IMG/VR virus record: IMGVR_UViG_2829814883_000001
Span: 1 to 54,164 of that record
Length of the DNA: 54,164 bases
DNA from: a virus
Direction: 5' to 3' (one strand)
The position numbers and the translations under genes were made by a program. The first letter of the stretch is position 1; each line of letters begins with the position of its first letter. The notes below the pieces were generated by a model that was not told the DNA's origin, made no database searches, and worked only from the letters and a program-made list of their open reading frames with translations. Below, piece by piece: positions 215 through 46,626 of the stretch.

Positions 215-243
215 TTGACCTTCTCTATTTTTCGTACTACATA
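215..243 (+). promoter_or_regulatory. Candidate sigma70-type promoter of the brnTA cargo operon, possibly giving a leaderless mRNA
   Basis: TTGACC (215-220), 17-nt spacer, TACATA (238-243). The ATG at 251 is only 7 nt downstream and has no Shine-Dalgarno sequence. Confidence 0.3.
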
Positions 244-250
244 AATTCAC

Positions 251-514
251 ATGAAGATTGATTTCGACATCGCCAAGAGCCTTCGGAACGCCGTCAAGCG
301 CGGCCTCCCCTTCGATCTCGTCGAGGGCTTCGATTGGAACACGGCTCTTGTGGTCGAGGATCTTCGCAGCGACTATCCGGAGCGCCGCTTTCAGGCTCTC
401 GGCCTGATCGGCAACAAGCTCCACATGGTCGTGTTTACCCCCATCGAAGGCGGCGTGAGGGTCATCTCCCTCCGGGCCGCCAGCCGAAAGGAGCGCAGCC
501 GATGGCCAAGATAA
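251..514 (+). CDS. brnT: BrnT-family (DUF497) type II toxin
   Basis: 87-aa ORF. The sequence (KIDFD..KSLRN..KRGL.F..V..F.W...) is typical of BrnT. It overlaps the downstream BrnA-like ORF by 13 nt. Confidence 0.8.
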   Translation: MKIDFDIAKSLRNAVKRGLPFDLVEGFDWNTALVVEDLRSDYPERRFQALGLIGNKLHMVVFTPIEGGVRVISLRAASRKERSRWPR

Positions 515-3826: not shown

Positions 3827-4633
3827 TCAGGCCGCCTCGTTCAGCAGCGCGCCGTATTCGGCGATGGCATTGAAGCAGGGGCAGACCTTCACCCATTCGT
3901 GCGGCTCGACGATGCCGTCGCCGTCCCGATCCGGAGAGAAGTCCCGATGCCCCATGACGGCCCGCAGCCGGTAGCGCGCGATGGTCTCGCGCGTCAGCCG
4001 GATCATGGCCTGCATCTGCTCCGCCGTCCGGGTGTCCTTCGGCCTGCCATTGGCATCGACGCCGCCGACATAGGCATAGCCGAGCGTCCCGGTATTGTGC
4101 CCCTCCACATGCGCCCCGGCGAGATGTTCCGGGCGTCCCTCGGACACAGTCCCGTCGAGGTGGACGAGCTTGTGATAGCCGATCTGCGCGAAGCCGCGGG
4201 CGCGGTGCATCGCATCGATCTGGGCCACGGGGAACTCCTTGCCCTCCGGCGTGGCAGTGCAGTGCCAGACGAGAGTATGGACCGGCCGCAGCACGGGGCG
4301 CGCCGGCAGGACCGGCGTTCCGCCTGCGACCCTCTTCGCCCAGGCTTCCCGGGCGATCCGGGTCAGGGCTCCCGCGATCCCGTCCACCGTGCCGGTCGGG
4401 ATCCCGGCCAGGCACAGGATGAGCTGCTCGGCCGCCACGATGAGGCGGCTGTCGCTCCAAGCCGAAGGCGCGGCGCCAGGAGCGAGATAGCCCGGGTGCC
4501 GGGCCAGCTCCGCCAGAACGGCGGCGCGGGTCTTTGGTCCGAACTCGCCATCGGCGCCGTCCCGTGCCTGGCCCGACTGCCCGAGGTCATAGCCGCGCGC
4601 CAGCAGCGCGCGCTGAATCTCAGCGACGTTCAT
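3827..4633 (-). CDS. Endolysin: N-terminal peptidoglycan-binding domain plus N-acetylmuramoyl-L-alanine amidase (Amidase_2/PGRP type)
   Basis: N-terminus IQRALLARGYDLG..DGEFGPKTRAAV is the PG_binding_1 pattern. The C-terminus (HCTAT...GYH..V..DG....GR.....GAH......NT.....YVGG) is Amidase_2-like. Confidence 0.8.
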   Translation of the reverse strand: MNVAEIQRALLARGYDLGQSGQARDGADGEFGPKTRAAVLAELARHPGYLAPGAAPSAWSDSRLIVAAEQLILCLAGIPTGTVDGIAGALTRIAREAWAKRVAGGTPVLPARPVLRPVHTLVWHCTATPEGKEFPVAQIDAMHRARGFAQIGYHKLVHLDGTVSEGRPEHLAGAHVEGHNTGTLGYAYVGGVDANGRPKDTRTAEQMQAMIRLTRETIARYRLRAVMGHRDFSPDRDGDGIVEPHEWVKVCPCFNAIAEYGALLNEAA

Positions 4634-4664
4634 GAAGTCCTCTTGGTGTGGTTGGAAGGATCGT

Positions 4665-6155
4665 CTAAGCCGCCAATACAGACTGAACGACCGGGGCCAG
4701 CACAGCCGCCATCCTGGTGTATCCGAGCGATGTCGGATGGATGGTGTCGAGATAGTATGTCGCGCTCGCCGGGTTCGCGAGATCGGCTACTGTGTCGTAA
4801 TCCGCCACCAGATAGCCGTAGGTCGCTGCGTTGTTGCGGATCAGGTCGTTGAGTGCGAGGCGCTCCGCCTCCCGCGCCGGAAGACTGGCGATGCTGGATC
4901 GCGGCAGGACCGTGCCGACGATGACCGTATATCCGAGTCCCTGACAATACTGGATGTAGGGCAGGATGCCCTTACCGGTCACTGTGTTATGCCAGGTGTT
5001 CGCGGCCGACGTGCCGGCGTTAATGTCGTTGGACCCGACCCCGAACACGAGGATGTTCTTGCCCGGTGCCGCGACACGGTCGATCCCGGAATGCTTGGCG
5101 GCACGGGCGTCGTAGATCACATCGCTCGTGGTGCCGAACACCGCCTGATTGTAGACGTCGATATCCGCCGTGCTGCCGAGAGCCCGCAGGGTCTGGCGCA
5201 TGTTGTTTTGCAGATCCGTCGCGCCGTAGCCTTCGGTGATGCTGTTTCCATCGAAGACGAGGCAATGGCTGAAGGTCTTCGGAGCCGCCTGCGGGAACGC
5301 CGTCGCCAGCGCGGTGCGCAAGACGGTGACATCCTGGTCGGCCAAGGTTCCGGGCCATACGGCGAAGACGTATTTCTCGCCGCGATAGTTGAAGTTGAGG
5401 CCCGCCCCAGAACCGCCGAGGCGCCCGCCCGAATACACCCCAGCCCCGCGCGCCGCGAAGGAGGAGGAAGCTCCCTTGTAGTAGACCTGGAAGGCCGTCG
5501 CCGAGAACCGATGGATGAGAATATTCGGCCTCGCCTGAATCGTCTTCGGGGTCTGCACCGCACCGTCGGCCCCGGACAGGAAGTTCAGGGTAGAGTTCGG
5601 GTTCGTGTAAACGGCGGCCCGGCTTCCCGCGACCGTGCCGATCTCGTAAAGGGCGTTCGAGTTCCACGTCGAGTTCGGCGCATCGATGGCGAGCACCGTG
5701 CCGTTCTGCCGGTCGAGGACGACACCCGCTGGAAGATTCAGATGCTTCGAAGGACCGGACCCGCCCGGCCCGCTGTCGAAGGTGATGCTGGCGAGTCCCT
5801 CCCAGGCGTTGGTCGGGATGAAGGTCGGACGGCTCGCCGCCGTCGTCTGGGTGGCGTGATTGCCATTGCCGCTCTGGTCGTACCAGATATCGACGAACAG
5901 CTTGGCGCTCGCCCCTCCCGCCGCCCGGAAAGTCTCGGCCGCCGCAACGTCGATGAAGCCGTTGGTGCCGAACCCGATATCGAGGGTCGCGTTATCGGAC
6001 GAGCGCACGGCCCGAAGGCATGGGCCGCCATAAGTTCCGACCTTGCGGACGGAATAGATGACGCTCGCGCCAGCCGGAAGAGTGAGAGCGGCCGATGCGC
6101 CGCCCCCTTGTGCCCGGCGGCGTGCGGCCCGGTAGCCATAGCCGAGCCGGTACAT
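4665..6155 (-). CDS. Two-domain protein: lectin/LamG-like N-domain plus C-terminal SGNH/GDSL esterase
   Basis: 496 aa. WYDQSGNGNHATQ is typical of LamG-like tail or sugar-binding modules. The C-terminal half has VFDGNSITEG (block I GDS-like), GSNDI (block III) and DTIHPT (block V DxxH). Confidence 0.65.
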   Translation of the reverse strand: MYRLGYGYRAARRRAQGGGASAALTLPAGASVIYSVRKVGTYGGPCLRAVRSSDNATLDIGFGTNGFIDVAAAETFRAAGGASAKLFVDIWYDQSGNGNHATQTTAASRPTFIPTNAWEGLASITFDSGPGGSGPSKHLNLPAGVVLDRQNGTVLAIDAPNSTWNSNALYEIGTVAGSRAAVYTNPNSTLNFLSGADGAVQTPKTIQARPNILIHRFSATAFQVYYKGASSSFAARGAGVYSGGRLGGSGAGLNFNYRGEKYVFAVWPGTLADQDVTVLRTALATAFPQAAPKTFSHCLVFDGNSITEGYGATDLQNNMRQTLRALGSTADIDVYNQAVFGTTSDVIYDARAAKHSGIDRVAAPGKNILVFGVGSNDINAGTSAANTWHNTVTGKGILPYIQYCQGLGYTVIVGTVLPRSSIASLPAREAERLALNDLIRNNAATYGYLVADYDTVADLANPASATYYLDTIHPTSLGYTRMAAVLAPVVQSVLAA

Positions 6156-6487
6156 CAGACCACCTCGATGAAGGAGAGCAATTCGCCGGACTTGAGCAGG
6201 ATCGGAACCTCCTCGCCGGATTTGATGAGCTTTCCGTTGAGCCGCTGCGCCGTCGGATCGGTGCCCCAGGCGACCACGAAGGTTCCCTCCAGCCCCCGGA
6301 CGAGCGCATAGCCCCTGCTATGCGTGCCGAACTCCGGCACGACCGGCCGCTGCCCCGCCGCGGTCGCCGTAGTGGAGATGTCGATCTCGACCGCCCCGTG
6401 GATCGAGCGGATGACGTTCTCCGCGACTCCGTCCATCTCCGGGCCGTAGCCCAGCCGAATCCATTCAATGCGCGCCTTTGCCGCCAT
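6155..6487 (-). CDS. Hypothetical protein (110 aa)
   Basis: Tightly packed between gpD and the SGNH gene. Good GC3. No family recognised. Confidence 0.5.
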   Translation of the reverse strand: MAAKARIEWIRLGYGPEMDGVAENVIRSIHGAVEIDISTTATAAGQRPVVPEFGTHSRGYALVRGLEGTFVVAWGTDPTAQRLNGKLIKSGEEVPILLKSGELLSFIEVV

Positions 6488-6515: not shown

Positions 6516-7592
6516 TTAAGAGGGTGCGCCGGAGGGTGCCGGAGCGTCGTCGAGGACGCCGCCCCCTCCGGACGGATCCCGGTCGTCCTTGCCGGTGCCC
6601 TTGCCCGGTCTCTTCAGCTCGAGCTGGCTGAGGAAGCCTTGCCCGCGCGTCCATTGATGCTCGACGTTGCCGATCAGGTAGGTGCCTGAGATGCCCGCGC
6701 GGATCGACACCTCGCACAGGGCTTCCGCCTGCGCTGCCGGATCCCCGTCGATAGTGAGCGTGCCGCCGCCCTTCTCGCGGTCGCGCTTGCGCTTCAAGCC
6801 CTCGGCGAAGCGCTGCGCGGTCTCCTGGTCCGGCGCGGAGAAGCGGGAGGTGCTGGCCGTTCCCTGCCCCATGACACGGACTCGGCCGTCCTGCATCTTC
6901 CACTTGGCATCGGCAGGATCGTAATAGGTCGCATCGAACTCCTCGTACTCGTGGCGTCCGTCATCGGGCCCGAGGTCCCAGTTGACGATGTTACCGGGCC
7001 GCGTGGCCTTGACGATCTGCAGCGGCTTGCCGGAAGCCGACTTGCCAGCATTCATCGGCACGAACACCGCTGTCTTTCCGACAACCTTGAAGGTGGCCCC
7101 GAGCTCGTCGGCGGTCCGCTGCGCCCAGTGCAGGTAGCTCTCCCGCCCGAGATACCAGTAATCGCGACGGATCTGCCCGAGATCGCCGTCGATGGCGATG
7201 GAGAAGCCATCAGGAGCGAAGGCGCGCGCAGCCTTCTCGAAGGTCGCATCGTCGAGGTGCTTCTCCTTGCGGACCTTCAGCCCGCCGCGCATGTCGGCGG
7301 CCTTAGCCGGCACGATCAAGTCCTGCCCGCCGCCGCGCGACCCGCGCGAGCGGGGATTGTCGATGACGCCCTCGAAGGTGACCGCGCCCGGAACCTCGTC
7401 GCGCCAGAGCGTGACCTCCAGGCTCTCGCCGCGGCGCGGAAAGGCGAACTGATCGTCCTGGTCGTTGAGCACAAGTTCGGCCGTGTCCGACTTCCGTCCC
7501 GGCGCGTCCTTGACCTTGATCGAGAGGACCTGGGAGAAGATCTCTGACGGGATGGGCTTGCCCCCGATCTTGACGATGGCATGTGAGGCCAT
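6516..7592 (-). CDS. P2 gpD-like tail protein (late control D family)
   Basis: 358 aa at the conserved position after U/X. The sequence pattern (KPIPSEI...SIKV.D..G..SD.AEL.L.D) is gpD-like. Confidence 0.75.
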   Translation of the reverse strand: MASHAIVKIGGKPIPSEIFSQVLSIKVKDAPGRKSDTAELVLNDQDDQFAFPRRGESLEVTLWRDEVPGAVTFEGVIDNPRSRGSRGGGQDLIVPAKAADMRGGLKVRKEKHLDDATFEKAARAFAPDGFSIAIDGDLGQIRRDYWYLGRESYLHWAQRTADELGATFKVVGKTAVFVPMNAGKSASGKPLQIVKATRPGNIVNWDLGPDDGRHEYEEFDATYYDPADAKWKMQDGRVRVMGQGTASTSRFSAPDQETAQRFAEGLKRKRDREKGGGTLTIDGDPAAQAEALCEVSIRAGISGTYLIGNVEHQWTRGQGFLSQLELKRPGKGTGKDDRDPSGGGGVLDDAPAPSGAPS

Positions 7593-7607: not shown

Positions 7608-7835
7608 TTAGTCGGTGAGCCTGAGAAGGCGAACGGGCCGCACTGTGGCGGGCTCCGGGATTTCGACCGTCACCTGCGTGCCGATCGGCAGATAGGGGCC
7701 GTGATCCGCGAGGCCCGGATTCCGGTCGAGAGTTTTCTCGACGAGGCCCGGAACCTCGCGCCCGAAGCGCCGGTAGAGCAGCAGGTCGAGGGTCGTGAAG
7801 GCGCTCTCCACGGGAGGAAGGGTTTCTGTGCTCAT
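7608..7835 (-). CDS. P2 gpX-like tail protein
   Basis: Internal ATG (7835) of track ORF 7608-8081 gives 75 aa. ATGA overlap with the gpU stop. Its position between U and D matches P2. Confidence 0.65.
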   Translation of the reverse strand: MSTETLPPVESAFTTLDLLLYRRFGREVPGLVEKTLDRNPGLADHGPYLPIGTQVTVEIPEPATVRPVRLLRLTD

Positions 7836-8260
7836 CGGCCGATCAGCCTCATCAGGGTCATGACGTAGCCCAGCGGCGTGGCGGGCCGGGGCGACTTCTT
7901 CAGGACGATGTCGAATTCGATCTGCCGGCCGACGCCGCTGACGCCGAGATAGGAATGCTTCTCGCGGTAGCGTTCCACCACCCACCAGCCCATGTTGCGG
8001 CCGTCGCCGCGCACCACGATGTGCGGCTCGCCGGACAGGCGCATCTGCTCGAGCACGTCGAGGCTGGTGAGCCCGCCCCATTTGCGCGGGAAGAGACGCC
8101 CGCGCAGGGTCAGGACGCTCTCACCTTCCCCCACGAATTCGAGCGGGCGGAGGCTGCCGATCACGTCCTTGGCGGCGTAATCGGCCGAGGCCTCCAGCTC
8201 GACCTCATGGATGTTCGGCGCCGTGACCCGGAAGGTCAGCGCTCCAACCTGATAGAGCAT
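7832..8260 (-). CDS. P2 gpU-like tail protein
   Basis: 142 aa. MLYQVGALTF...RGRLFP is the gpU pattern. It follows the tape measure gene. Confidence 0.75.
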   Translation of the reverse strand: MLYQVGALTFRVTAPNIHEVELEASADYAAKDVIGSLRPLEFVGEGESVLTLRGRLFPRKWGGLTSLDVLEQMRLSGEPHIVVRGDGRNMGWWVVERYREKHSYLGVSGVGRQIEFDIVLKKSPRPATPLGYVMTLMRLIGR

Positions 8261-8290: not shown

Positions 8291-10330
8291 CTAATCGTAG
8301 TCGGCGTAGGAGCCGGAGCGGCGGTTCTGGAATTCCTGCCCGAAGCTCAGCGAGCCGGCGCTGTTCCCAGCATTCTGCATGGCCGGGCCGATCTGGGACA
8401 GATCGGACAGGAGCCCGCGCACGGCCGCCCGCGCCCTTTCGATGGACGAGATGTCGACGGTCGGGGCCACGGGGTTGGTGAGCGCCTGGAGGACCTGCGC
8501 CGCCTCCGCCGCCTTGCCGGTAATCCGGTCGAGGCCGGACTGGCTGCCTTCGGGCGCACCGCCAGGGCCGAAGCCGAAGGAGGCTCCGCCGCCGAGCGTG
8601 GGCGCGACGGTGTCCGGGGGTGGAGACCGCCCGAAGTTCATGACGCTCTCGCCCGACCGGACCTGCCGCTCCAGCTGCGCGACCGAACCCGCAAGTTCCG
8701 CAAGCTTCGCCCGGACAGCATCCGCGTCGCGCTGCGCGGCCCGAAGCTCGTCCTCCGCGCGACCGATCTCGAGGTCGATCCGCCGCTGCTCGGATGGCGT
8801 GAGGGGACCGGCAGCCCGGCGGCTGCGAGCATCATCGAGCGTCGCCTTGGCCTTTCGCTCACGCTCCATTTTCTCGGCGATGGCCGCCGTCTGCCCCTTG
8901 AGCCGCGCCTCCTCTCCGGTCGCTCCCGCCCAGGCATCGAGCGCTTTGTAACCGGCGATGGCTGGTGCAACGTAGGGCAGGTTCGGAATGACATGGCCGG
9001 TTACGGCGTCTTGGACCACTTCGAGCGTACCCTTACCAGCACCCTCGCTTCCGTTCTTCTCCTCTTCGTAGGCTTTCAGACGCTTCAGGATGCGCTGCAG
9101 GAGCGTATCGCCATTCTCCAGATCGTTGAGAAACCGACTCAGGTTCTCCGCCGCATCGCCCAGCCCCAGCTTGATCGGCCGACCTAATCTGGTCATCAGG
9201 GAATCCCAGGCCTTCTCGGCCCGTTCGATCTTGGCGAAGTCCTTCTCCTGCCAGAGCTCGAAACCCTTCTGGACCGAGCCGACATAGTTCTTCTTGTCAC
9301 CCATGGTCTGCAGCAGCGTATTCACGCGCGGCAACTGGTTGATCAGGCGGGAGATGTCGTCCTGGTATTCCTTGCCGAAGAGATTCGTCAGGATCTCGGC
9401 GCGCTTGAGAGGATCGGAGACCTTGCTGATTTTGGTCAACAGGCCGAGCGTCGCCTCCATGGGTTTCGCCGTGAACTCCCTGCGCATCTTGGTGGAGTTG
9501 ACGCCGAGGGCTTTGAGGCCCGCGCCCGCATCCTTGGAGAATCCCTCCCCGAGCTGCATCAGGGTGAGCAAAGCATTGTAGCCGGTCGCGGCGACCTCGG
9601 TGGTCACACCCACTTCCTTGAGCGCTGCCCCCACGGCGAGGGTCTGCTCGGCGGTGATGCCGACCTGCTTACCGGCCGCGCCCGTGCGGCGCAGGAATTC
9701 CAGAAGGTCCGATTCCTTCGAGGCCGAGGAATCGGCCGCCGTGTTGATGGCGTCGCCGATCTCCTCGATCCGGGTCTGGTTCGCGGCGTAGATGTTGCCG
9801 ATTTCGGCCAGGCCCTGCCCGACCTCATCGGCGCTCATCTCCCAGGCGCTGGTGGCCTTCGCCGCATATTCGGTGAACCGCGCCAGCTCCTTGACGGGAC
9901 GTCCGGCAAAGCCTGCCGACGCCATGATGTCGGCCACATCCTCCTTGGCCATGCCGGTCTGCTTCGAGATCCGCAGGATATCGTCCTCGAACTTCTTGGC
10001 CGCCGCCCCCGTCGTGTCGGTGGCCTTCTCCACACGGTACATGGACCGTTCGAAAGACAGCGCCTCCCGACCGGCCTTATGGAGAGCCGCACCGGCGGCG
10101 AAGGCGGCCACGCCGATTGCACCGCCGGCGGCGGAAAGCCCCAGGCCCGCTCCATCGAGGGCCGATCCGGCTACCGCGAGGGTCCTGGTCGAGGCCGCGA
10201 GCTGGCGAGTCCCGCCTCGGGCGTTGCGCGCCGTGCGGTCGAGATCCCGGATCGAACGCGCCGCCTTCCCGGCCGGACCCGAGACGCCGTCCTTGAGGCG
10301 GACGGTCAGCTGAGACGTGAGGTTAGCCAT
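8291..10330 (-). CDS. Tail tape measure protein
   Basis: 679 aa, Ala/Gly-rich helical protein with a TP901-type core. It lies immediately downstream of the E/E' chaperone pair. Confidence 0.85.
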   Translation of the reverse strand: MANLTSQLTVRLKDGVSGPAGKAARSIRDLDRTARNARGGTRQLAASTRTLAVAGSALDGAGLGLSAAGGAIGVAAFAAGAALHKAGREALSFERSMYRVEKATDTTGAAAKKFEDDILRISKQTGMAKEDVADIMASAGFAGRPVKELARFTEYAAKATSAWEMSADEVGQGLAEIGNIYAANQTRIEEIGDAINTAADSSASKESDLLEFLRRTGAAGKQVGITAEQTLAVGAALKEVGVTTEVAATGYNALLTLMQLGEGFSKDAGAGLKALGVNSTKMRREFTAKPMEATLGLLTKISKVSDPLKRAEILTNLFGKEYQDDISRLINQLPRVNTLLQTMGDKKNYVGSVQKGFELWQEKDFAKIERAEKAWDSLMTRLGRPIKLGLGDAAENLSRFLNDLENGDTLLQRILKRLKAYEEEKNGSEGAGKGTLEVVQDAVTGHVIPNLPYVAPAIAGYKALDAWAGATGEEARLKGQTAAIAEKMERERKAKATLDDARSRRAAGPLTPSEQRRIDLEIGRAEDELRAAQRDADAVRAKLAELAGSVAQLERQVRSGESVMNFGRSPPPDTVAPTLGGGASFGFGPGGAPEGSQSGLDRITGKAAEAAQVLQALTNPVAPTVDISSIERARAAVRGLLSDLSQIGPAMQNAGNSAGSLSFGQEFQNRRSGSYADYD

Positions 10331-10834
10331 GGACGGGCTCCGTTAAGCCGAGCGCGAGCGCCTCCTCGTACCAGCCGAGAAGATCGAGCCAGTCGTAGGT
10401 TTTCAGGTCGCGGATATTCTGGTTCAGTCCGCTTGCGACGGCGGCGACGTAGCGTCGCCAGAGAGCAGGGTTGACCCGAGCACCCGTCGCAAGCGTTGGG
10501 GCAAAAAACTTTGCACGACCTCGAAGACGCGCCGGTCGTCGTCGTCGTCCATCACCCCGGCGGCAAACAGACCGGGGGGCACCGGCTCGCCACCGGGCAG
10601 CGTCGTCATGGCCTCGCAGATGCTCACCTCGGCCCCGCTTTTCAGGGCCTCCATGACAGCCTCGACCTGGGACACGGTCAGGCGATGGACTTCGAAGCCG
10701 GTGATCTCGGCCCCGCCGTAGGTGAAAGGCCATTCGAGGGAAACGGCCTGCGTTCGGGCGCGCCCCTCGACGGGCAGAAACGCTGCTTTTACGTGGGGCT
10801 CAGGTGACGATGACATTGGTTCCTGCTCGGCCAT
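10323..10834 (-). CDS. Tail assembly chaperone gpE+E' (-1 frameshift fusion product)
   Basis: After a -1 slip at TTTTTTG, the reading continues as FFAPTLATGARVNPALWRRYVAAVASGLNQNIRDLKTYDWLDLLGWYEEAL. That is the C-terminal part of track ORF 10323-10733 and ends 8 nt inside the tape measure gene. Confidence 0.7.
10424..10834 (-). CDS. Tail assembly chaperone gpE (zero-frame product)
   Basis: ATG at 10834 is preceded by AAGGAA. 136 aa. It contains the slippery site near its 3' end. Confidence 0.75.
   Translation of the reverse strand: MAEQEPMSSSPEPHVKAAFLPVEGRARTQAVSLEWPFTYGGAEITGFEVHRLTVSQVEAVMEALKSGAEVSICEAMTTLPGGEPVPPGLFAAGVMDDDDDRRVFEVVQSFLPQRLRRVLGSTLLSGDATSPPSQAD
10502..10508 (-). promoter_or_regulatory. 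Programmed -1 ribosomal frameshift slippery heptamer T TTT TTG
   Basis: The minus strand reads AGT TTT TTG CCC. This is the same heptamer class as P2 E/E' and other tail chaperone frameshifts. Confidence 0.7.
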
Positions 10835-10845
10835 TCCGGCATTCC

Positions 10846-11700
10846 TTACTGCATGTTGACGATGGATTTCGGAATCATGACGGCGCGGGACTTCACGCCG
10901 CCGAAATCGAGCGGCGCGCGGCTGGCCCTGGCGCCGTCGAGAGACAGGAGGGGCAGATACCAATCCTCCGCCCAGGGGGTTTCCTCGAACAGTTTCTTCA
11001 GGGCCGGATGATGCTCGGCGACGGCGAGATAGTCCCGCCCCCGCCCCGGCACCGGCTTGAGACCGCGCGCCTGGAGCCAGCCGCGCACGGTCGGGTCGCT
11101 CCAGGCCCGCTGCACCTGGACGCGCACCGAGGAGCCCGTATCCAGGGCGAAGCGCAGCAGATGGCCGAGGCAGCCGGGGCCGTCTTCGTCGGGCAGGTCG
11201 TAGAGCGCGCCCTCCTCCCGCGTGTGAACCTGGGGCAGCGGCAGGCGTTCCCACAGGGCCTTGGCCTGGACGCGCCCATAGATGTGCCGCGCCTCGGCCA
11301 CCAGGCGGGAATAGGCGTTGAGGCGCTCGACCTCGACGAGGTCCACTGTCGCCGGCGCGGACGGCGGCTGGCCCACCGAGTAGGTGCCGGTGCGGCGCAG
11401 GGCCGGCAGCACCTCGTGCGCGAGCCAGCGCTTGAACCGCTCGGCCGCCGGGGTGCGGGAGGTGAAGATCAGCCGGTAGACGCCAGCTTCAGAGATGATG
11501 GTAGTCATCCGATCTCGACCGATTGCGTCCACAATCTGGACGCAATCCCTTTCGTCGTCATCAAGACGTGAAAGAACCTGTCGAGAATTCTTCAGGTCGA
11601 GCGCGGCGCAAACATCGGTCCCGACGAACCAGGGCTCCTCGTCCCTGACCACGGTGCGGACCTGCTTGGCTTCGAAGGTGTAGGCTTGAAGGGCGTTCAT
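10846..11700 (-). CDS. Bro-N domain protein (antirepressor-like) with an unknown C-terminal domain
   Basis: N-terminus F....VR.V..DEEPWFVG.DVC.AL......R.VL..LDDDE......D..GR...TIISEAGVYRLIF.SR.P.AERFKRWL..EVLP.LR matches Bro-N. Its stop lies 11 nt before the gpE start. Confidence 0.75.
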   Translation of the reverse strand: MNALQAYTFEAKQVRTVVRDEEPWFVGTDVCAALDLKNSRQVLSRLDDDERDCVQIVDAIGRDRMTTIISEAGVYRLIFTSRTPAAERFKRWLAHEVLPALRRTGTYSVGQPPSAPATVDLVEVERLNAYSRLVAEARHIYGRVQAKALWERLPLPQVHTREEGALYDLPDEDGPGCLGHLLRFALDTGSSVRVQVQRAWSDPTVRGWLQARGLKPVPGRGRDYLAVAEHHPALKKLFEETPWAEDWYLPLLSLDGARASRAPLDFGGVKSRAVMIPKSIVNMQ

Positions 11701-11831
11701 AGATCAGTCTCCATCGGCATCCGGCCCGCCAAGACCTGGAATGCGCACAGGTGGTCGCGAACGACCGCCGGAGCCGATGAAGCTCGCCGGTCGCATTCAT
11801 CCCCATGGCGGCGGGGAAATTCGGTGTGGTG

Positions 11832-12218
11832 TCAGGCGGTGGCCGCGAGGCGCAGCACGTCGTCGACGAGGGCGGTCAGCATCTCATCCAGGCTCGGCCC
11901 GTCATCGTCCCGCTCCGGCGCGTATTGCCTGGCGATGGCGGCCTTGACGGCGAGACCGCCGACGGTGCGGGCCGGAATGGCCTGGATCGCGAATTCGAGG
12001 CGGGCGGCCTCGGCGCACAGGGCCGCGTATGCGGCTTCACCGGTTCCGTCCGGGGCGGATTTGGCCCGGTCCTGGGCCGCTCTCCACTCCCTGCCGAGGC
12101 GCATAAGCTCCGCGTCGGGGTTGCGGCCCGGAGCGGCCTGCGCCAGGGAAGCGGACAAGGGGGCGGCGAGCGCCGCTGACAAAACGGCGCGGCGTGTGGT
12201 AGAAGCGGCATCAGCCAT
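11832..12218 (-). CDS. Hypothetical exported protein with a twin-arginine (Tat) type signal
   Basis: 128 aa. N-terminus TTRRAVLSAALAAPLSASLAQA. The + strand ORFs opposite it are R/S-rich junk. Confidence 0.6.
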   Translation of the reverse strand: MADAASTTRRAVLSAALAAPLSASLAQAAPGRNPDAELMRLGREWRAAQDRAKSAPDGTGEAAYAALCAEAARLEFAIQAIPARTVGGLAVKAAIARQYAPERDDDGPSLDEMLTALVDDVLRLAATA

Positions 12219-12248
12219 GGCATCCTCTAACTTAGGTTGCTTCGGTTA

Positions 12249-12290
12249 GAGCCGGGTGAGAGGTGCAAGCTCTTGCTCGGCTCGTTTTTT
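12249..12290 (+). terminator. Terminator-like hairpin (14-bp stem including 3 GU pairs, 7-nt loop) followed by TTTTTT
   Basis: 5' arm 12249-12262, loop 12263-12269, 3' arm 12270-12283, T-run 12285-12290. No + strand gene ends upstream of it, so its role is unclear. Confidence 0.4.
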
Positions 12291-12306
12291 GTGATATCTC
12301 TAATTC

Positions 12307-12519
12307 ATGACCAAGTCAATTACTGATATCACGAAAAAGCGGGGCAGGCCGAGATCGACTGGTCCGGGCACTCCTATCGGATTGCGGTTACTACCGGAGA
12401 TCCTAAGCGCTCTGGACGCTTGGATCGAGAAGCTACCAGATCCAAAACCTTCGCGCCCTGAGGCGATCCGGCAGATCCTGACCGACTGGCTGAAGGCCAA
12501 GGGCTACCTATCCCAATAG
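12307..12519 (+). CDS. Small RHH-like DNA-binding protein (70 aa)
   Basis: KKRGRPRSTGPGTPIGLRLLPEILSALDAWIEK resembles the GRP..P..LRL.P..L pattern of BrnA/CopG-type proteins. It sits on the strand opposite to the tail operon. Confidence 0.55.
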   Translation: MTKSITDITKKRGRPRSTGPGTPIGLRLLPEILSALDAWIEKLPDPKPSRPEAIRQILTDWLKAKGYLSQ

Positions 12520-12590
12520 CCGAGACAACCGGGGATTGACTCCTGCAACACAGTCACGCTCATTAAGCGAGGCTCAATACAGGGGGTCCC

Positions 12591-13025
12591 ATGCCATTCC
12601 GTCCACACGCTCTCGTCCTGCTCGCGGCTGCATTAGGCTGGTTTTCCGGCCCGGCAGTTGCTCAATCGACCGAATACAAGGTCGTCGATGCGGCAGACCT
12701 ATCCGTCAGCGCCCGCAAGTACGCAGATCGCGACATCGAGGTCCGCGACGTGCGGTGCTATTATGCTGACATCGGCGACTATCGCTGCGTGACAAGAGAA
12801 AGCGTAAGCATCTTCGCCGCCTCGATCGCGCCCCTTGAGGCCGAAACCGCCATCAAGGACAACTGCGACGCCATCAAGGTCGCCCTTACATCTCCAAAGT
12901 GCCGCGTCGCACTCAGATTTCGTTACTCCGCCGAGCAGGTAGGACACGACATCATCAGCGGATATCAGAAGCGCACTGTCATCAAAACTGGGATGGTAAG
13001 GGTCGGGTTCGCCCGCAAGCGCTGA
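12591..13025 (+). CDS. Secreted hypothetical protein (Sec signal, cleavage after AVA; 4 Cys in the mature part)
   Basis: 144 aa. MPFRPHALVLLAAALGWFSGPAVA-QS. Locally lower GC. SD-like aggggg lies upstream. Confidence 0.6.
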   Translation: MPFRPHALVLLAAALGWFSGPAVAQSTEYKVVDAADLSVSARKYADRDIEVRDVRCYYADIGDYRCVTRESVSIFAASIAPLEAETAIKDNCDAIKVALTSPKCRVALRFRYSAEQVGHDIISGYQKRTVIKTGMVRVGFARKR

Positions 13026-13033
13026 TCACCAAG

Positions 13034-13057
13034 GAAGCCCGCCAACCGGCGGGCTTC
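13034..13057. terminator. 10-bp perfect GC-rich hairpin between the convergent genes 12591-13025 (+) and tube (-)
   Basis: gaagcccgcc aacc ggcgggcttc. Only short T-runs flank it. Confidence 0.5.
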
Positions 13058-13069
13058 TTCATGTCAGGA

Positions 13070-13597
13070 TCAATACCGCAGGATCCGGCGCTCGTCGGCG
13101 TTCTGAGGAACGCCGTTGATCCGGCGCTCGCCCGTCTCGAAGTCGAAGTAGAACTTCTCCTTCTCGTCGAACCAGAGGCCGTAACGCATGATCTCCTGGA
13201 TCGTGTGGTCGTGGCCGAGAACGTCGCCGCCGCGGCTGAACTCGTCGCTCTCGATCCGGGTCAGGCGGCCCCAGGCGATGGCCTTGACCTCGATGGCCCG
13301 GTGGCTGATGTCCTTGCTCCGGACCAGGCCGTAGGTCGTGTAGGGCTGAATCCCCCCGTCGAGACCGAACTGCTCCATGGTCTGCGGATCGTAGCCGAAG
13401 ACCTTGAAGGTGATCTCGAGCGCATTCATGCCCAGTCCGCCGACATTGACGGCCATGTAGGACCCGCCCGGGTGAACGGTGGCGGAGACCTCCTCCATCG
13501 TCGGCAGCTTGATGGACTGGAGATTGTTGCGCTTGTTGGCGTTCGGCGAGTTGTCGCCGGCGTAGAGGTTGACGGCCTCCTGGATGAGCAAAGGCAT
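13070..13597 (-). CDS. Major tail tube protein (P2 FII-like)
   Basis: 175 aa. MPLLIQEAVNLYAGD...IKLP and the C-terminal pattern are typical of FII. It lies directly downstream of the sheath. Confidence 0.85.
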   Translation of the reverse strand: MPLLIQEAVNLYAGDNSPNANKRNNLQSIKLPTMEEVSATVHPGGSYMAVNVGGLGMNALEITFKVFGYDPQTMEQFGLDGGIQPYTTYGLVRSKDISHRAIEVKAIAWGRLTRIESDEFSRGGDVLGHDHTIQEIMRYGLWFDEKEKFYFDFETGERRINGVPQNADERRILRY

Positions 13598-13678
13598 GGT
13601 CCGTTTCCTTCGAGATGAATGACAGGTGAGGAGCGAAGGGCCGCACTCCCGTGAAGGTGCGCGGCCCTATCGGCCCGG

Positions 13679-15532
13679 TTACGCGGCGGTCCCGAGGAGT
13701 TGGTCGGTGTTGGAGACCAGATCCTGGATGAGGATGTTCAGGGACTCGCGGTTGCGGCGGCTGTCGAGCGTGACGTGCTTGAGGGTCGGCGGCTCCTCGG
13801 CGGCGTAGAAGGTCCGGATGCGGCCGAGCCGCAGGTTCTCCGGATTGTTCTTGTCCTCCTCGAACCCGACATTCCAACCGGGCAGGATCGCGCCTCTGGC
13901 CTGAAGATCGGACAGGAAGGCGATATGGTCGTTGAGGACCGCCTGGATGCCGTGCCGCGTGATATTGGTCCGGCCCAGCCGCCGCCGGGTGGCGCGAAGC
14001 AGAGCGAGGTGCTCGTAATCGCGCATGCGGCTCACGTTGATCATGCGCCACTTCGGATCCTCGGCGCAGGTATCGGTGCAGATCAGCACGAAGCCGGAAT
14101 CGGAAATCGCCGTCTCGAGCCCGAGCTCGCCGCGCTGGGTGATGCCGATCTGGTTGGCCAGGAGAGTCTGGCCGTCATTTGCGCCATCGGTGAGAGAGAA
14201 GGAATCGTAGCGCTTGAGGCCGATGATCCCCTGAACCGGGCGGTTGGCCGGCGCATACATGGGAATGCCCCCAGCCTCGAAATCGGCTGCGACCTGCTGG
14301 CCGATGGCCACCAGCGCACCATCCTCCTCCACGTCCGACGTGCCGACCCGGACGATGTCCCAGTTGTCGAGAGCGATCAGGTTTTCGCTGGTGATCGTCT
14401 CGCGCCAGTCGAGGGCGTCCCGCACCGTGGTGCCGGGCCCGCCGACATAGGCCTTGGCGAGCAGCGCATTCGTGATCTGAGGCAGCGCCGCGCAGATCGG
14501 GTTGGCCTGCGCCACGCCGCCGGTCACGCCGACCGTCACGTCGAAGCCGTCGCCGACCGCGAAATCGGTCGCGCCGTCGGCGATGGTGAACCGGATATGG
14601 GCGCCGGTATAGGCCTCGCCCACCGTGGCGTTGGCCAGCATCGCGCCATCGGGATCGCGGACGGAGAACACCCCGCCGTTTGCCGGAACGGAGGGCGCGA
14701 CCGTGATGGTGAACCGGTCGCCGATGGCGAAGTCGGTCGAGCCGTCCCCGATGGTGAACGTGACCGGGCCGTTATAGGCCTGTCCGACCTGAACGACGCC
14801 GATGGTCTGGCCGTTCGGGTTCTCGACCACGAAGGTGCCGCCGTTGGCCGCCGCGGCGAAACACGTCGCGGTATAGACGCCAGCCGCCGCGCCGACGCCG
14901 GTGCCGACGCCCGTGACCGCGCCGTTGCCGGTATTGCCCTCGGCCGCCGCAGCCGTGGCCGCGAAGGAGCCACCGATGCAGCGGACCTGATAGATGCCGG
15001 GCTTGACGCTGCCGCCGTAAGCCGGTGACGAGGCCAGGGTCAGGGTGCCGGTGCCGGCATTGCCGCCGCTCTTGACGGCACTGGAAACGTTCGTCGCACC
15101 CGCCGTGCGGCTGAACTTGCCCGTGAAGCCGGGCGAACCCAGCAGGCGCGGGATCACGCCGAGGCGCTGGCCTGATTGCAGCATGGCGTACCAGCCCGTG
15201 CCGGCCGCGGGATCGCCGACGATGTTGGCGATGGTCTCGTCGACGGTCGCACCCTGCGGGACGCGCACCGCCACGATCCGCGCGGCGATCTGGAAGCGCG
15301 CCAGCTGCGCATTGATCTTCACCACCGCCCGGTAGAGCGGGCCGGTGCCGAGCTTGCTCAGAGAGGCCAGGTCGCTCGAGTTGAAAGCCACCGCCACGTT
15401 GTAGGGGAAGGCGGCGGGGTCCGCGTCGGCGGAAGGCAGGACGAGGCCCACCACCGAGAGGTCGCTGGCGACAACCGAGGTCGGCTCGCTGTCGTCGCGG
15501 ATGAAGGTCATGCCGAAGGTCGGCTCGGTCAT
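13679..15532 (-). CDS. Contractile tail sheath protein (P2 FI-like) with a ~200-aa internal insertion
   Basis: 617 aa. The N- and C-terminal parts are sheath-like (the C-terminus RGAILPGWNV...RLGRIRTFY is conserved in FI proteins). The middle part carries Gly/Ala-rich tandem repeats. Confidence 0.85.
   Translation of the reverse strand: MTEPTFGMTFIRDDSEPTSVVASDLSVVGLVLPSADADPAAFPYNVAVAFNSSDLASLSKLGTGPLYRAVVKINAQLARFQIAARIVAVRVPQGATVDETIANIVGDPAAGTGWYAMLQSGQRLGVIPRLLGSPGFTGKFSRTAGATNVSSAVKSGGNAGTGTLTLASSPAYGGSVKPGIYQVRCIGGSFAATAAAAEGNTGNGAVTGVGTGVGAAAGVYTATCFAAAANGGTFVVENPNGQTIGVVQVGQAYNGPVTFTIGDGSTDFAIGDRFTITVAPSVPANGGVFSVRDPDGAMLANATVGEAYTGAHIRFTIADGATDFAVGDGFDVTVGVTGGVAQANPICAALPQITNALLAKAYVGGPGTTVRDALDWRETITSENLIALDNWDIVRVGTSDVEEDGALVAIGQQVAADFEAGGIPMYAPANRPVQGIIGLKRYDSFSLTDGANDGQTLLANQIGITQRGELGLETAISDSGFVLICTDTCAEDPKWRMINVSRMRDYEHLALLRATRRRLGRTNITRHGIQAVLNDHIAFLSDLQARGAILPGWNVGFEEDKNNPENLRLGRIRTFYAAEEPPTLKHVTLDSRRNRESLNILIQDLVSNTDQLLGTAA
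14531..14848 (-). repeat. Tandem ~50-aa repeat pair inside the sheath gene
   Basis: aa 229-278 NGGTFVVENPNGQTIGVVQVGQAYNGPVTFTIGDGSTDFAIGDRFTITV versus aa 285-334 NGGVFSVRDPDGAMLANATVGEAYTGAHIRFTIADGATDFAVGDGFDVTV. Confidence 0.8.
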
Positions 15533-35276: not shown

Positions 35277-37109
35277 TTAATCATGGGGGTTCCGGGGCGC
35301 GTCGTGGCGCGTGTCGGGTCGGTCGGGAACGCTATGGAGAGCAACATCCAGATAGAAGTTGCGCCCGCCGATCTCCTGCTTTCGGAATCGCTGTGCGAGG
35401 GTCTTGCCGAACTTCGTCTGTGTCCTGGCCCGCTTGGCATTGGCCATCGACCAGGAAACGTAACCCTCGTACAGGGCGCTAGCGGACTCCCGGTTGCCTT
35501 CGGCCTCCTTGACACAGGCCTTGATGAACTCGCCGACCGGGTCCATCTCCTCCCGGTATTCGGCTGTGTCGTTGCGCACGGCATCGGCGATCACCAGTCC
35601 ATGCTCGAGATAGTCGAGCGCGCCTTCGATCAGCCACCACAGGATGCCAGGGCCCTCCTCGCGGATGAATTCCCCCACGACCTCCTCGAAGTCGCGCCGC
35701 TCCTCCTCCGGGATGGTCTGGTCCCAATGCACGACCAACAGGCGGCGCCAGATGCCGTTGTCGGTACCGTCGATGGAGGGGAAGCCGTTGCCGCTCATAT
35801 GAGCCTTGGCGTAGTTCTGAAACTCGAAATACCCCTTGAAGAGCGTTCGCACCGGCACGGACTCGCCGCCCGTGAGGCGCTTGATCAAGTCCTCCTGCAG
35901 CGGGGCGTCACCCTTGACCTCAAGGATGCGGACCATCTTCTTGCCGTAGAGCCGCACGAGATCCGGCGATGCCGAACCGGCCGCGCGCTCCGACGCTCCG
36001 ACGATCGATTCACGGGGAAGGCCAACTGCAAGCCCCGGTCCGAGCAGTCGGGTGATCGTTTCCAGAAAAACCGATTTGCCGTTGGCCCCCAGGCCGTAGT
36101 GAAACATCAGGTACTGGGCGGGTATGCCGAGTAGCGCGAGAGCCGTGAATTGCTGAACCGTGCGCCGCTTGGCTGCATCCGGTAGCATCCGCTCAAGAAA
36201 GGCGCGCCACCGCTTCGCCTTGGCGTCCTTTTCGTATGCCACCGGAATGACGGCGGTGATCCAATCCTCGCGGCTATGCCCCTCGACCGCCACGCAACGC
36301 ACGTTCGTGAACCGCTCGACTTTCGGATCCGGGCATTCCTCGTCCCTCTCGCGCTCAAACTTCAGCGTGTGGGTGAGGGTCGCGACTTTGTAGCGATCCG
36401 GATTGAAGCTGTCCGGCGGCCGCCGCAGACGCGGGGCCAGGCATTCGAGGGCAGACTTCATCCGGCTGGCGTTCTTGGACGAAACGGCGAATTTACGCCG
36501 CGCCACCTTGCGCTTGTTCAGCTCGGCGCGTGCGTCCTCGGCAGCATCGACCAGCCGTTGCAGCCGTGCGGCGTCGGCCTTTTCGGCTTCGCCCCACGCG
36601 TCCTTATTCTTCTCGAGCCGGTGAAGGTCGGCCTTGGCATGATCGCCAACCTCTATCGCGCGCAGCTCGGCGGGCGTCGATTTCAGATGATCCGCTTCGA
36701 GGAGGATGCGGCTCCCGAGCTTTTGGACCGTCATCATGGCCCGCGCCGCGCCGCCAGCGATATCCCAATGGGTCCCTGCCCAGGCCATCCATGTTCCGGC
36801 AGCAACCTCGTCCTGGGCAAGGACCGCGAGGTCTTGGCCGAAATAGCGGATCATGCGGACCGCATTGTCCGTATCGGAATGATCGAGAGCCGCGCATTCC
36901 GCCACAATCTCCGCAAGCCTCGGCTCGCCAGATAGTTCAGCATCACCCGCCTCGTCGAAAGGTGGTTCCGGAGGATCGAAGTCGCTGTCCTCACCTCCGT
37001 CATCGTCCAGGCCAAAGGAACCGTCCTCCGGTCCAAGATCCTGACCGATATCAATCGGCGGAGCCGCGCCGACGGCATCGGCGATCTGCTGCAAAGGGCC
37101 GTTGCTCAC
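35277..37109 (-). CDS. D5/P4-family primase-helicase (SF3 NTPase, phage/plasmid primase C-terminal domain)
   Basis: Walker A GLGANGKS plus a C-terminal D5-type region. I prefer the GTG at 37109, preceded by GGAGG. The track start ATG 37148 lies inside the hicAB operator-like repeat. Confidence 0.8.
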   Translation of the reverse strand: MSNGPLQQIADAVGAAPPIDIGQDLGPEDGSFGLDDDGGEDSDFDPPEPPFDEAGDAELSGEPRLAEIVAECAALDHSDTDNAVRMIRYFGQDLAVLAQDEVAAGTWMAWAGTHWDIAGGAARAMMTVQKLGSRILLEADHLKSTPAELRAIEVGDHAKADLHRLEKNKDAWGEAEKADAARLQRLVDAAEDARAELNKRKVARRKFAVSSKNASRMKSALECLAPRLRRPPDSFNPDRYKVATLTHTLKFERERDEECPDPKVERFTNVRCVAVEGHSREDWITAVIPVAYEKDAKAKRWRAFLERMLPDAAKRRTVQQFTALALLGIPAQYLMFHYGLGANGKSVFLETITRLLGPGLAVGLPRESIVGASERAAGSASPDLVRLYGKKMVRILEVKGDAPLQEDLIKRLTGGESVPVRTLFKGYFEFQNYAKAHMSGNGFPSIDGTDNGIWRRLLVVHWDQTIPEEERRDFEEVVGEFIREEGPGILWWLIEGALDYLEHGLVIADAVRNDTAEYREEMDPVGEFIKACVKEAEGNRESASALYEGYVSWSMANAKRARTQTKFGKTLAQRFRKQEIGGRNFYLDVALHSVPDRPDTRHDAPRNPHD

Positions 37110-37129
37110 TGAAGCCTCCGCGAATTTTT

Positions 37130-37191
37130 TGCGCACATATAGGCGCATTTATGCTTGACAGGGGAACGGCTATGCGCATAAATAGGCGCAT
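37130..37191 (+). promoter_or_regulatory. hicAB promoter with a duplicated 19-bp palindromic operator
   Basis: TTGACA (37155-37160), 17-nt spacer, ATAAAT (37178-37183). TGCGCACATATAGGCGCAT at 37130-37148 and TGCGCATAAATAGGCGCAT at 37173-37191; the second copy covers the -10 element. Confidence 0.6.
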
Positions 37192-41209: not shown

Positions 41210-41213
41210 GGTT

Positions 41214-46574: not shown

Positions 46575-46581
46575 GCCATGC

Positions 46582-46610: not shown

Positions 46611-46626
46611 CGAGAACAGGTCTCCC

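Follow-up and report, generated by a model that had tools for sequence, protein, structure and literature searches.

A two-part insert at the tube/chaperone junction of a P2-type prophage: a recurring candidate regulatory cassette beside a moron-like gene for a predicted exported protein

Results

The tail operon is split between the tube and chaperone genes

The DNA studied here is IMG/VR record IMGVR_UViG_2829814883_000001, taken over its whole length of 54,164 nucleotides and called the window below. It is a P2-type myovirus prophage with its late genes on the minus strand, and our subject is an island of four genes located between the gene for its tail tube and that for its gpE/E′ tail chaperone (Table 1). 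The whole analysis was computational, and promoters were judged by eye against comparative conservation. In P2, the tail operon is ordered FI-FII-E-E′-T-U-D. A preliminary description, made from the letters of the window alone, had pointed to a 2.2-kb separation of tube and gpE and to four open reading frames (ORFs) in this space. We measured 2,235 bp from the tube stop to the gpE start (10835-13069), and all four ORFs were found where they had been placed and on the same strands. Two of them, coding for a 144-aa protein and for a 70-aa protein resembling ribbon-helix-helix (RHH) regulators, are oriented against the tail genes. The other two, coding for a 128-aa protein and for a 284-aa protein with a Bro-N domain, follow the direction of the tail genes. 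Microvirga flocculans encodes the exact island proteins (GGR34_003689, GGR34_003690 and a 'prophage antirepressor-like protein'). Baseplate, head, terminase and replication genes are situated further along the window.

Table 1. Features of the island and of the adjoining tail genes. SD, Shine-Dalgarno sequence; rc, reverse complement; SL, stem-loop; Tat, twin-arginine translocation.
Feature	Position	Strand	Description
Sheath	13679-15532	-	617 aa
Tube	13070-13597	-	Pfam Phage_tube PF04985, E=1.6e-11; upstream boundary of the island
GC-rich hairpin, tube/144-aa convergent gap	13032-13059	both	Candidate bidirectional terminator or attenuator
144-aa protein, Unit A moron gene	12591-13025	+	N-terminal signal peptide (predicted), four invariant Cys
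Promoter-like element of 144-aa gene	12536-12564	+	TTGACT 12536-12541, 17 nt, CTCATT 12559-12564
70-aa RHH-like regulator	12307-12519	+	ORF conserved; unannotated in source genome
Leftward promoter-like element P_L	12291-12319	-	-35 TTGACT (rc 12314-12319), 17 nt, -10 TATCAC (rc 12291-12296)
Candidate operators O1 and O2	12285-12338	.	GATATC cores 12293-12298 and 12325-12330; bracket the RHH ATG
Candidate ~80-nt RNA	12213-12294	+	SL1 ~12215-12245; SL2 terminator hairpin 12249-12283; U-run 12285-12290
Promoter-like element for plus-strand RNA	12176-12205	+	CTGACA 12176-12181, 18 nt, TG-G-TAGAAG 12197-12205
128-aa protein, first leftward gene	11832-12218	-	Tat-like N-terminus (TRRAVL...AQA), four-helix domain
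284-aa Bro-N protein, second leftward gene	10846-11700	-	Pfam PF02498, E=8.5e-25
gpE/E′	10323-10834	-	gpE 10424-10834 and E′ frameshift extension to 10323; downstream boundary of the island
Tape measure (T)	8291-10330	-	P2-type tail gene
gpU	7832-8260	-	P2-type tail gene
gpX	between gpU and gpD	-	P2-type tail gene
gpD	6516-7592	-	P2-type tail gene

The downstream boundary of the island has the features of the P2 chaperone. Its two ORFs overlap, a slippery TTTTTTG for -1 slippage of the P2 type is directly read in gpE at 10503-10509 (minus strand), and the gene lies immediately upstream of the tape measure gene, whose ATG at 10330 is overlapped by the end of the -1 ORF at 10323. The Pfam family Phage_TAC_7 gave a weak match to gpE (E=0.013). 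On the island side, the stop codon TAA of the Bro-N gene (10848-10846) is followed after 11 nt by the gpE ATG (10834).

Distant relatives, retrieved through the tube protein, were used as negative synteny controls. They comprised one genome contig (43% identity), 10 viral contigs (25-42%) and four metagenome contigs, none of them close. The tube and tape measure genes can both be seen in 12 of them. In all 12, these two and the chaperone gene are contiguous, with 540-830 nt between tube and tape measure as compared to 2,740 nt in the window, and the chaperone alone fills this space. Since none of these 12 tail modules has extra room, the 2,235-bp stretch is an insertion, and the interruption of normally contiguous tail genes that had been proposed is confirmed. 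The accessory, non-virion nature of the island also held: it is absent from the 12 distant relatives and none of its four proteins matches a tail family. The island DNA gave a single match, of 98 nt, in the plasmid collection.

The insert consists of two separate units

The closest relative is a metagenome contig, L006, with a sheath protein 76%, a tube protein 64% and a 144-aa protein 79% identical to those of the window. Gene calls in this and in the other related loci are our own, based on GC content at third codon positions (GC3). The order in L006 is tube (-), 144-aa homologue (+) and gpE start (-), with the 144-aa gene as sole insert and a gpE N-terminus 59% identical to that of the window. 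DNA homology between L006 and the window restarts at window position 12525, six bases past the stop codon of the RHH gene. A second relevant locus, L007, belongs to a Mu-like tail module with a tube protein of a different Pfam family (PF10618). There, a 144-aa homologue (46% identical) is convergent with the tube gene and precedes the chaperone and tape measure genes, that is, it occupies the same junction.

As L006 and L007 carry the 144-aa gene alone, this gene travels independently and the remainder of the island is a second insertion. We conclude with high confidence that two separate units occupy the gap in the late operon, Unit A (12520-13069) and Unit B (10846-12519). The preliminary description had taken the four genes for a single envelope-acting module. 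This is not borne out by L006, given its lone 144-aa gene and the point where homology restarts, nor by the RHH, 128-aa and Bro-N genes, which form a separate, recurring regulatory cassette with divergent predicted promoters. The comparison with relatives lacking the island therefore speaks for the insertion and against one undivided island, L006 having kept the 144-aa gene. The tube/chaperone junction appears as an insertion hot spot, having taken up the same moron for a predicted secreted protein in two myovirus tail modules that are unrelated to each other.

Unit B contains an overlooked RHH-like gene with co-varying candidate operators

The 70-aa protein has 492 homologues at E<=0.01, mostly Methylobacterium-like or metagenomic and some of them named CopG/RHH; 101 relatives are in IMG/VR. 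The family shows the pattern KKRGRP-x-TG-x-G-x-IGVRL-x-P-x-LA-x-LDAWI-x-QPDPKPSRPEAIR, a conserved tract that can also be written KKRGRP...IGVRL...LDAWI...SRPEAIR and that fits a strand-helix-helix fold with a basic N-terminal arm. Pfam RHH_1 matches 10 of 33 family members (E<0.01), no other family being matched, and the RHH domain of NikR aligns weakly with the 70-aa protein (E=0.36). Searches found no match among INPHARED phages and three matches among plasmids. The protein had been described as RHH-like and without a family: it belongs to the family of 492 homologues, and the Pfam match of the window protein itself stays sub-threshold.

The locus tags GGR34_003689 and GGR34_003690 are consecutive, so that the 70-aa gene is uncalled in the source genome. 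In the RefSeq replicon of Rhodoplanes serenus NZ_LR026982.1 (L105), an RHH homologue at 6001-6183 is likewise unannotated. Under-annotation of this family, whose genes are short, seems to be systematic. In a P2-like locus (L087), baseplate J and gpX are separated by tandem RHH paralogues (4523-4837 and 5001-5183, plus strand) and, after these, a small membrane protein.

The surroundings of the RHH gene were compared across about 60 non-redundant loci. Because IMG/VR loci are phylogenetically non-independent, locus counts here and below overstate the number of independent events. In most of the loci, a divergent gene has its ATG 84-93 nt upstream of the RHH ATG, and the intergenic region of about 88 nt is conserved. 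The AT-rich patch that had been noticed at about 12285-12330 is real (GC 0.54) and belongs to a 21-nt imperfect inverted repeat, 12285-12305 and 12318-12338, with arms 86% complementary. The two candidate operators O1 and O2 are spaced by 32 bp, about three helical turns, and the O2 core falls within RHH codons 7-8. No further copy of the half-site occurs in the 54-kb window. This geometry, with its centre at about +4.5 from the ATG, is repeated in most related loci with different cores such as GGTACC, GTTAAC, CTATATAG and others. The similarity of O1 to O2 is higher within loci (9.69 of 12) than between them (8.31 of 12; p=1e-16), and such co-variation is the behaviour of diversifying operator specificities. 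It is moderately likely that the RHH protein represses through O1 and O2. A third operator, within the 128-aa gene, was considered and dropped: by eye, it had no apparent co-variation with O1 and O2, and an extended -10 element fits this site better.

The leftward promoter-like element P_L overlaps these sites, its -35 hexamer lying within RHH codons 3-5 and its -10 hexamer within O1. The motif (G)TCAA(T) at codons 3-5 is kept in 48 of 63 RHH genes, in differing reading frames, and is kept regardless of the rarity of TCA, which makes up only 2.7% of Ser codons in the window. We infer from this conservation that P_L is a promoter. The RHH gene has neither an SD sequence nor a convincing -35 hexamer of its own. 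Overall, the 70-aa protein is better read as a repressor of the leftward 128-aa/Bro-N operon than as the DNA-binding partner of two exported proteins that had been suggested.

A candidate structured plus-strand RNA faces the start of the leftward operon

Between the two divergent genes, we identified a candidate RNA of about 80 nt, complementary to the 5′ untranslated region, the SD sequence and the start codon of the leftward 128-aa gene. Its predicted start is the A at 12213. The corresponding promoter-like element sits in codons 5-15 of the 128-aa gene and the 3′ half of its -10 is non-canonical. An invariant AGCC follows by 7 nt a TG-n-TA extended -10-like motif, which sits in the first codons of the divergent genes. 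Anchored on this AGCC, the T and A at -13/-12 are each found in 51 of 61 loci and are preceded by G-T-G at -17 to -15, despite the encoded proteins being unrelated.

The second stem-loop (SL2) is paired in 92.3% of cells as compared to 71.3% in shuffles and at most 52% in slid controls. Compensatory changes occur at all 12 scorable pairs, a result reached by none of 500 shuffles, and at 13 of 13 pairs with RNAalifold. G.U pairs outnumber A.C mismatches 96 to 7, and the structure is therefore selected in the plus-strand RNA; the same counts ruled out a 5′ stem-loop of the leftward mRNA. Together with its T-run, the hairpin (12249-12290; minimum free energy -35.4, z -3.9) reads as an intrinsic terminator. 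The first stem-loop, SL1, formed by CCAUGAUCG... paired with ...GGUUGCGG, folds in 52 of 52 homologues with a mean z of -2.1. A covariance model of the RNA had one match in the window and retrieved held-out matches beside RHH genes, including that of the Rhodoplanes replicon, with no match in the 15 tube-only loci. A search of 10300-13700 against Rfam gave no family at E<=1. The covariation and G.U counts argue with high confidence for the RNA structure and for its strand.

As for its function, the position of the RNA over the ribosome site of the 128-aa gene suggests antisense regulation, which we regard as roughly an even call with a slight lean in its favour. Alternatively, the hairpin RNA could belong to the RHH mRNA as its attenuated 5′ leader, or could act simply as a terminator that insulates. 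The hairpin and its U-run share the strand of the RHH gene and precede its ATG by 17-58 nt, which together with the missing SD and -35 signals of the RHH gene would suit such a role. We nevertheless think a leader or insulator somewhat unlikely: in about 60 loci, the SD and start codon of the divergent gene are covered by the RNA at a constant distance, and the two stem-loops into which it folds are a shape typical of antisense RNAs. Leader and antisense roles could also coexist.

Another contig (L104) has a weak match to the RNA model (242-326, minus strand; 25 bits, E=0.0013), antisense to the start of a 128-aa homologue (P0125, 315-746, 50% identical). No RHH gene was detected in the remaining 241 nt of this contig, and it may be that the RNA element also moves together with the leftward gene.

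The leftward genes code for a Tat-like helical protein and a Bro-N protein

The 128-aa protein had been set aside as being without a family. No library family could indeed be assigned to it, NCBIfam included, but the protein does not stand alone: whereas a word-indexed search had retrieved only the protein itself, 105 relatives at E<=1e-3 came out of a full HMMER scan. Common to the family are an (S/T)RR motif, an Ala/Leu-rich stretch that varies and a domain PDAELLRLG...PA.T..GL.VKAR...LDD...D.LRL; RR (at least 90%), D35, G88 and K92 are conserved. A candidate twin-arginine signal, TRRAVLSAALAAPLSASLAQA, is read at the N-terminus. Pfam TAT_signal matches three of 30 family members, the window protein being unmatched, and export of the protein by the Tat pathway is plausible. 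The AlphaFold2 (AF2) model has a predicted local distance difference test (pLDDT) score of 86, with a four-helix domain (helices 34-127) after 33 disordered N-terminal residues, and gave no fold match below E=1 in the PDB. A hidden Markov model (HMM) of the family matches the RHH-divergent gene in 16 other loci.

The N-terminal domain of the 284-aa protein is well above the gathering score of Bro-N (87.7 bits for a cut-off of 25.6), and its N-terminus also matches the PHROG 'anti-repressor Ant' (E=1e-47). Relatives of this protein adjoin an RHH homologue in six other loci. Those of L026 and L027 are full-length, 34-36% identical and preceded by a Tat-like small gene. A relationship of the C-terminus to the D5 helicase of the prophage itself was dropped, the match having only E=0.08. 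That the Bro-N protein is an antirepressor is a tentative assignment, which its N-terminal matches suggest and about which we have more doubt than confidence.

The database check that had been proposed for the three small proteins, carried out with Pfam, PHROGs, NCBIfam and PADLOC, yielded only the sub-threshold RHH_1 match of the 70-aa protein and an unrelated MftG match of the 144-aa protein. With PADLOC, these three proteins were unmatched and the Bro-N protein weakly matched the candidate PDC-S13 (E=1.9e-7). This weak match, and the frequency of RHH proteins as antitoxins, could point to Unit B as an anti-phage defence or toxin-antitoxin-like system with the RHH protein as antitoxin or regulator. 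However, the genes are divergent and do not form a co-transcribed pair, no toxin-like domain was found with Pfam, NCBIfam or PADLOC, and the partner gene varies between loci, which makes this explanation highly improbable.

The cassette recurs in late operons with variable cargo

The recurrence of the Unit B cassette is established with high confidence. Orientation was counted in the 53 RHH loci flanked on either side, at no more than 3 kb, by genes of 200 aa or longer. Both flanking genes are antiparallel to the RHH gene in 35 of them and both are parallel in one. The neighbours are mostly structural genes, with TerL on one side (16 loci) and the major capsid gene on the other (15 loci), or else baseplate, sheath, tape-measure and further tail genes. 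In L092 and L094, the RHH gene is located between gpX and gpD of a P2-like tail; in the circular 53.7-kb Rhodoplanes replicon L105, it lies between head-tail and tail-terminator genes; in L008, the cassette is beside an integrase gene. A small membrane or signal-peptide protein often follows the RHH gene on the same strand (for example in L008, L039, L046, L050, L052, L075 and L102).

A Pfam search of 147 leftward proteins identified Bro-N in five (window included), pRha in four, ANT in two, P22_AR_N in two and KilA-N in one. Proteins with Rha and KilAC domains or with P22_AR_N fill the Bro-N slot in L092, L094, L069 and L088. Antirepressor-like genes accompany the RHH gene in only about one sixth of the loci, and the cassette is therefore to be viewed as a general unit made of a regulator plus cargo.

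The placement of the cassette could also mean that Unit B is an internal control point of the late operon, where the RHH protein mainly silences the downstream structural genes in the lysogen (E, T, U, X and D here, protease and capsid genes elsewhere) and the first leftward genes are passengers. P_L aims at downstream structural genes both in the window and in the TerL (16) and capsid (15) loci, the orientation bias is 35 to 1, and we found no terminator in the 11 nt that separate the Bro-N gene from gpE. Against such a role, the tail operons of the closest relative and of the 12 distant relatives work without the cassette, the position of the cassette varies (TerL/capsid, X/D, tube/E, beside an integrase), and the operator specificities diversify in the manner of immunity determinants. 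We consider it unlikely, and prefer to see Unit B as a self-regulating cassette that carries its own cargo.

In a group of loci (L029, L030, L033, L037, L045, L052, L053, L064, L066, L090, L095 and others), a TerL-sized gene of about 530-550 aa lies to the right of the cassette, and genes of about 120 aa, about 200 aa and a capsid-sized one of about 400 aa lie to its left. Several of these loci have AAA_25/KaiC-like, D5_N or Prim-Pol genes further right. Loci of this group may represent small elements, satellite-like or reduced prophages, whose capsid operon has the cassette at its head.

Unit A behaves as a moron

The 144-aa protein has a typical predicted signal peptide (...LLAAALGWFSGPAVA/QS), read from its sequence, and four cysteines, C56, C66, C92 and C104, that are invariant in the alignment. 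Only three homologues were found among 5.8 billion clusters. Pfam, PHROG, NCBIfam and PADLOC gave no family for it, the sole NCBIfam match at E<=1 being the unrelated MftG (E=0.012, 14.7 bits for a cut-off of 400), and RefSeq names it hypothetical. The UniProt label 'UrcA family' was not reproduced, the UrcA model being unmatched in NCBIfam. The AF2 model, built from only three sequences, is unreliable (pLDDT 55).

Upstream of the gene, the window and L006 are identical over a 25-nt block holding TTGACT-N17-CTCATT, in contrast to an overall DNA identity of about 74%. A generic sigma-70 scan did not pick up this element, which was read from the sequence. Downstream, the GC hairpin that had been noted after the tube gene is confirmed as a 12-bp stem (13032-13043 paired with 13048-13059). 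Its energy is -23.3 kcal/mol on the plus strand and -24.9 kcal/mol on the minus strand (z about -4.7), none of 200 shuffles being as stable; its U-tracts are weak on both strands. The corresponding gap of L006 has a related hairpin with an identical GAAGCCCGC/GCGGGCUUC stem core. Present in L006 and L007, absent from the 12 others and provided with predicted autonomous transcription signals, the 144-aa gene behaves as a moron and could be expressed from the prophage. An envelope role, for example in exclusion, is the most likely one to judge from the signal peptide, the orientation of the gene and its position among tail genes.

These data bear on the idea that all four genes form one lysogen-expressed envelope module, for exclusion, defence or host conversion, run by the DNA binder. 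The signal-like N-termini of both the 128-aa and the 144-aa proteins would agree with it, as would the small membrane or signal-peptide genes often found downstream of the RHH gene on the same strand in related loci and the presence of sieA in the immI neighbourhood of P22 (PMC2629481). But L006 and L007 have the 144-aa gene and none of the other three, and this gene retains a conserved promoter-like box of its own; the 128-aa gene, on the strand of the late genes, is divergent from the RHH gene and presumably shares its transcript with the Bro-N gene; no PADLOC system was found; and the Tat model supports only three of 30 members of the 128-aa family. One module of four genes is thus quite unlikely, and we retain Unit A as a moron independent of the Unit B cassette.

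Other features of the window

The sheath protein contains, at residues of about 220-340, tandem units of about 60 aa (...FTIGDGSTDFAIGDRFTITV... and ...FTIADGATDFAVGDGFDVTV...) with a weak FlgD Ig-like match (E=0.006). The L006 sheath, at 76% identity, has the same tandem units. The sheath looks as if it were decorated with Ig-like insertions.

After gpD and a 110-aa ORF, and before an amidase gene, a 496-aa protein resembling GDSL lipases/esterases is encoded at 4665-6155 (-), with a weak arabinofuranosidase-like match in precomputed gene calls; it may be a tail- or lysis-associated polysaccharide or lipid esterase. Further left are a gene for a D12-class N6-adenine DNA methyltransferase at the left edge of the prophage-like region (1531-2709, -), a 99-aa ORF without Pfam match (798-1097) and, close to the window's left end, a gene for a BrnT ribonuclease toxin (251-514, +; PF04365, E=2.8e-19). 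On the other side, a HicB-like antitoxin with a C-terminal RHH (37451-37861, +) is encoded between a D5-type primase-helicase (35277-37148) and a second primase (40025-41278), and a complete DNA polymerase III beta sliding clamp with three Pfam domains (46384-47745, +) is found among probable replication or early genes. No integrase was present among the approximately 30 window ORFs scanned with Pfam.

Discussion

A proposed self-regulating cassette inside the late operon

We consider it moderately probable that Unit B is a self-regulating cassette analogous, and not homologous, to the 'ant moron' of the P22 immI region, and that Unit A is an independent moron. According to this model, the RHH protein would bind O1 and O2, covering its own start codon and the back-to-back -10 elements, and would thereby repress P_L and autoregulate its own gene. 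The RNA of about 80 nt, starting at about 12213 and ending at the covarying terminator hairpin, would add antisense control in the manner of P22 sar. P_L would drive the 128-aa Tat-like helical protein, then the Bro-N protein, and with no terminator in between its transcription would run on into gpE/E′, T, U, X and D. Of these genes, E, T, U and D, whose supply of transcripts had been questioned in view of the hairpin after the tube gene, may be fed by read-through of this hairpin (13032-13059), by P_L, or by both. Relief of repression by the RHH protein would allow synthesis of the Bro-N protein, whose target would be a repressor or some other regulator, either of this phage or of a co-resident one. 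In Unit A, the 144-aa gene would use its own promoter-like box and share the hairpin terminator with the convergent tube gene. Its product would be a small Cys-containing protein, exported by the Sec pathway, made from the prophage and acting at the envelope, for instance in superinfection exclusion.

Several observations weigh against this interpretation. L006 is the only close relative found, and a scaffold gap of 10 N lies exactly at its junction, though a short-insert scaffold gap is unlikely to conceal 1.7 kb. Pfam RHH_1 (PF01402) matches the window protein below threshold (E=0.0029, 17.9 bits for a cut-off of 20.5). The proposed -10 hexamers end in G or C rather than T, and a generic sigma-70 scan called none of the proposed promoters. 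The C-terminal half of the Bro-N protein matches only phrog_30955, which is uncharacterised, and the protein has no ANT/KilAC domain, unlike antirepressor-type regulators that have been characterised. The window yielded no target repressor, and its 41-44.5 kb region is without Pfam matches. The gene in the position of arc codes for an exported-looking, Tat-like four-helix protein instead of a DNA binder, and this slot is highly variable across loci. A further reservation is the small share of loci with antirepressor-like genes, about one in six.

More broadly, the RHH gene, its co-evolving operators, the RNA of about 80 nt and the outward promoter could constitute a so far undescribed portable cassette of alphaproteobacterial temperate phages, a proposal that we make tentatively. 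If true, the cassette inserts antiparallel into head and tail late operons and re-supplies transcription to the structural genes that it severs. Its variable cargo (antirepressor-like, Tat-exported helical and small membrane proteins) would be under heteroimmune-type control, and its RHH gene and RNA would have been systematically missed by annotation. P2-like, HK97-like and siphovirus-type elements of alphaproteobacteria would then have come to the solution of P22 immI with unrelated parts, and a repressor, an antisense RNA and an antirepressor inside a late operon would be a general architecture and no peculiarity of P22. An unannotated repressor family with readable operators and a covarying RNA could also serve to predict cross-talk and heteroimmunity of co-resident prophages.

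Comparison with known systems

The window has the sheath, tube, E/E′ (with the TTTTTTG frameshift), T, U and D order of the P2 tail operon. It differs from P2 by the 2.2-kb insert between FII and E and by gpX between U and D.

Unit A can be compared with Tab of the Pseudomonas aeruginosa phage JBD26, a defence moron carried in the late operon between the terminase genes (PMC10884400). Like Tab, it is a single extra gene of the late operon, present or absent among relatives, and it shares with late-operon morons its own promoter-like and terminator signals and a plausible expression from the prophage. Unlike Tab, it is transcribed against the operon, and its product has a predicted signal peptide and no homology to Tab or to any named family.

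In characterised phage regulators of the AriS-like and Ant types, the N-terminal domains Bro-N, pRha and AntA are interchangeable (PMC9043618). The window protein also has an N-terminal Bro-N domain, but it lacks ANT/KilAC. Trans-acting antirepressors of Gifsy phages are encoded outside the immunity region (PMC3121763), and the window Bro-N gene similarly sits away from the main switch region. In contrast to AriS- and Gifsy-type regulators, control here appears to be exerted by a dedicated RHH protein rather than by LexA, an alphaproteobacterial SOS box not having been searched for.

The closest likeness of layout is with immI of P22. This region of the late operon is hypervariable, comprises mnt, arc, sar, ant and sieA, and reportedly influences how far transcription reads through into the tailspike gene (PMC2629481). 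In P22, sieA and mnt are divergent from arc and ant, which lead to gene 9, with the sar RNA (PMC2629481). In the window, the genes for a predicted exported protein and for the RHH protein are divergent from a small first gene and an antirepressor-like gene, which lead to a tail gene, with a candidate antisense RNA. As in P22, the region is inside the late operon just upstream of a co-oriented tail gene, an RHH repressor candidate is divergent from an operon ending in an antirepressor-like gene, a candidate antisense RNA lies on that operon, and a membrane or exported protein, here predicted to be prophage-expressed, is encoded beyond the repressor. By analogy, the region is also variable among otherwise syntenic phages and may modulate read-through into the downstream tail genes. 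On the other hand, the window belongs to a P2-like myovirus of an alphaproteobacterium and its parts have no sequence homology to those of immI: the RHH protein matches the generic RHH_1 family and neither Arc nor Mnt, and the antirepressor-like protein has Bro-N in place of P22_AR_N/C. The candidate RNA targets the ribosome site of the first gene and not that of the antirepressor gene. With non-homologous parts and Arc replaced, the cassette is therefore called an analogue of immI and not a member of it.

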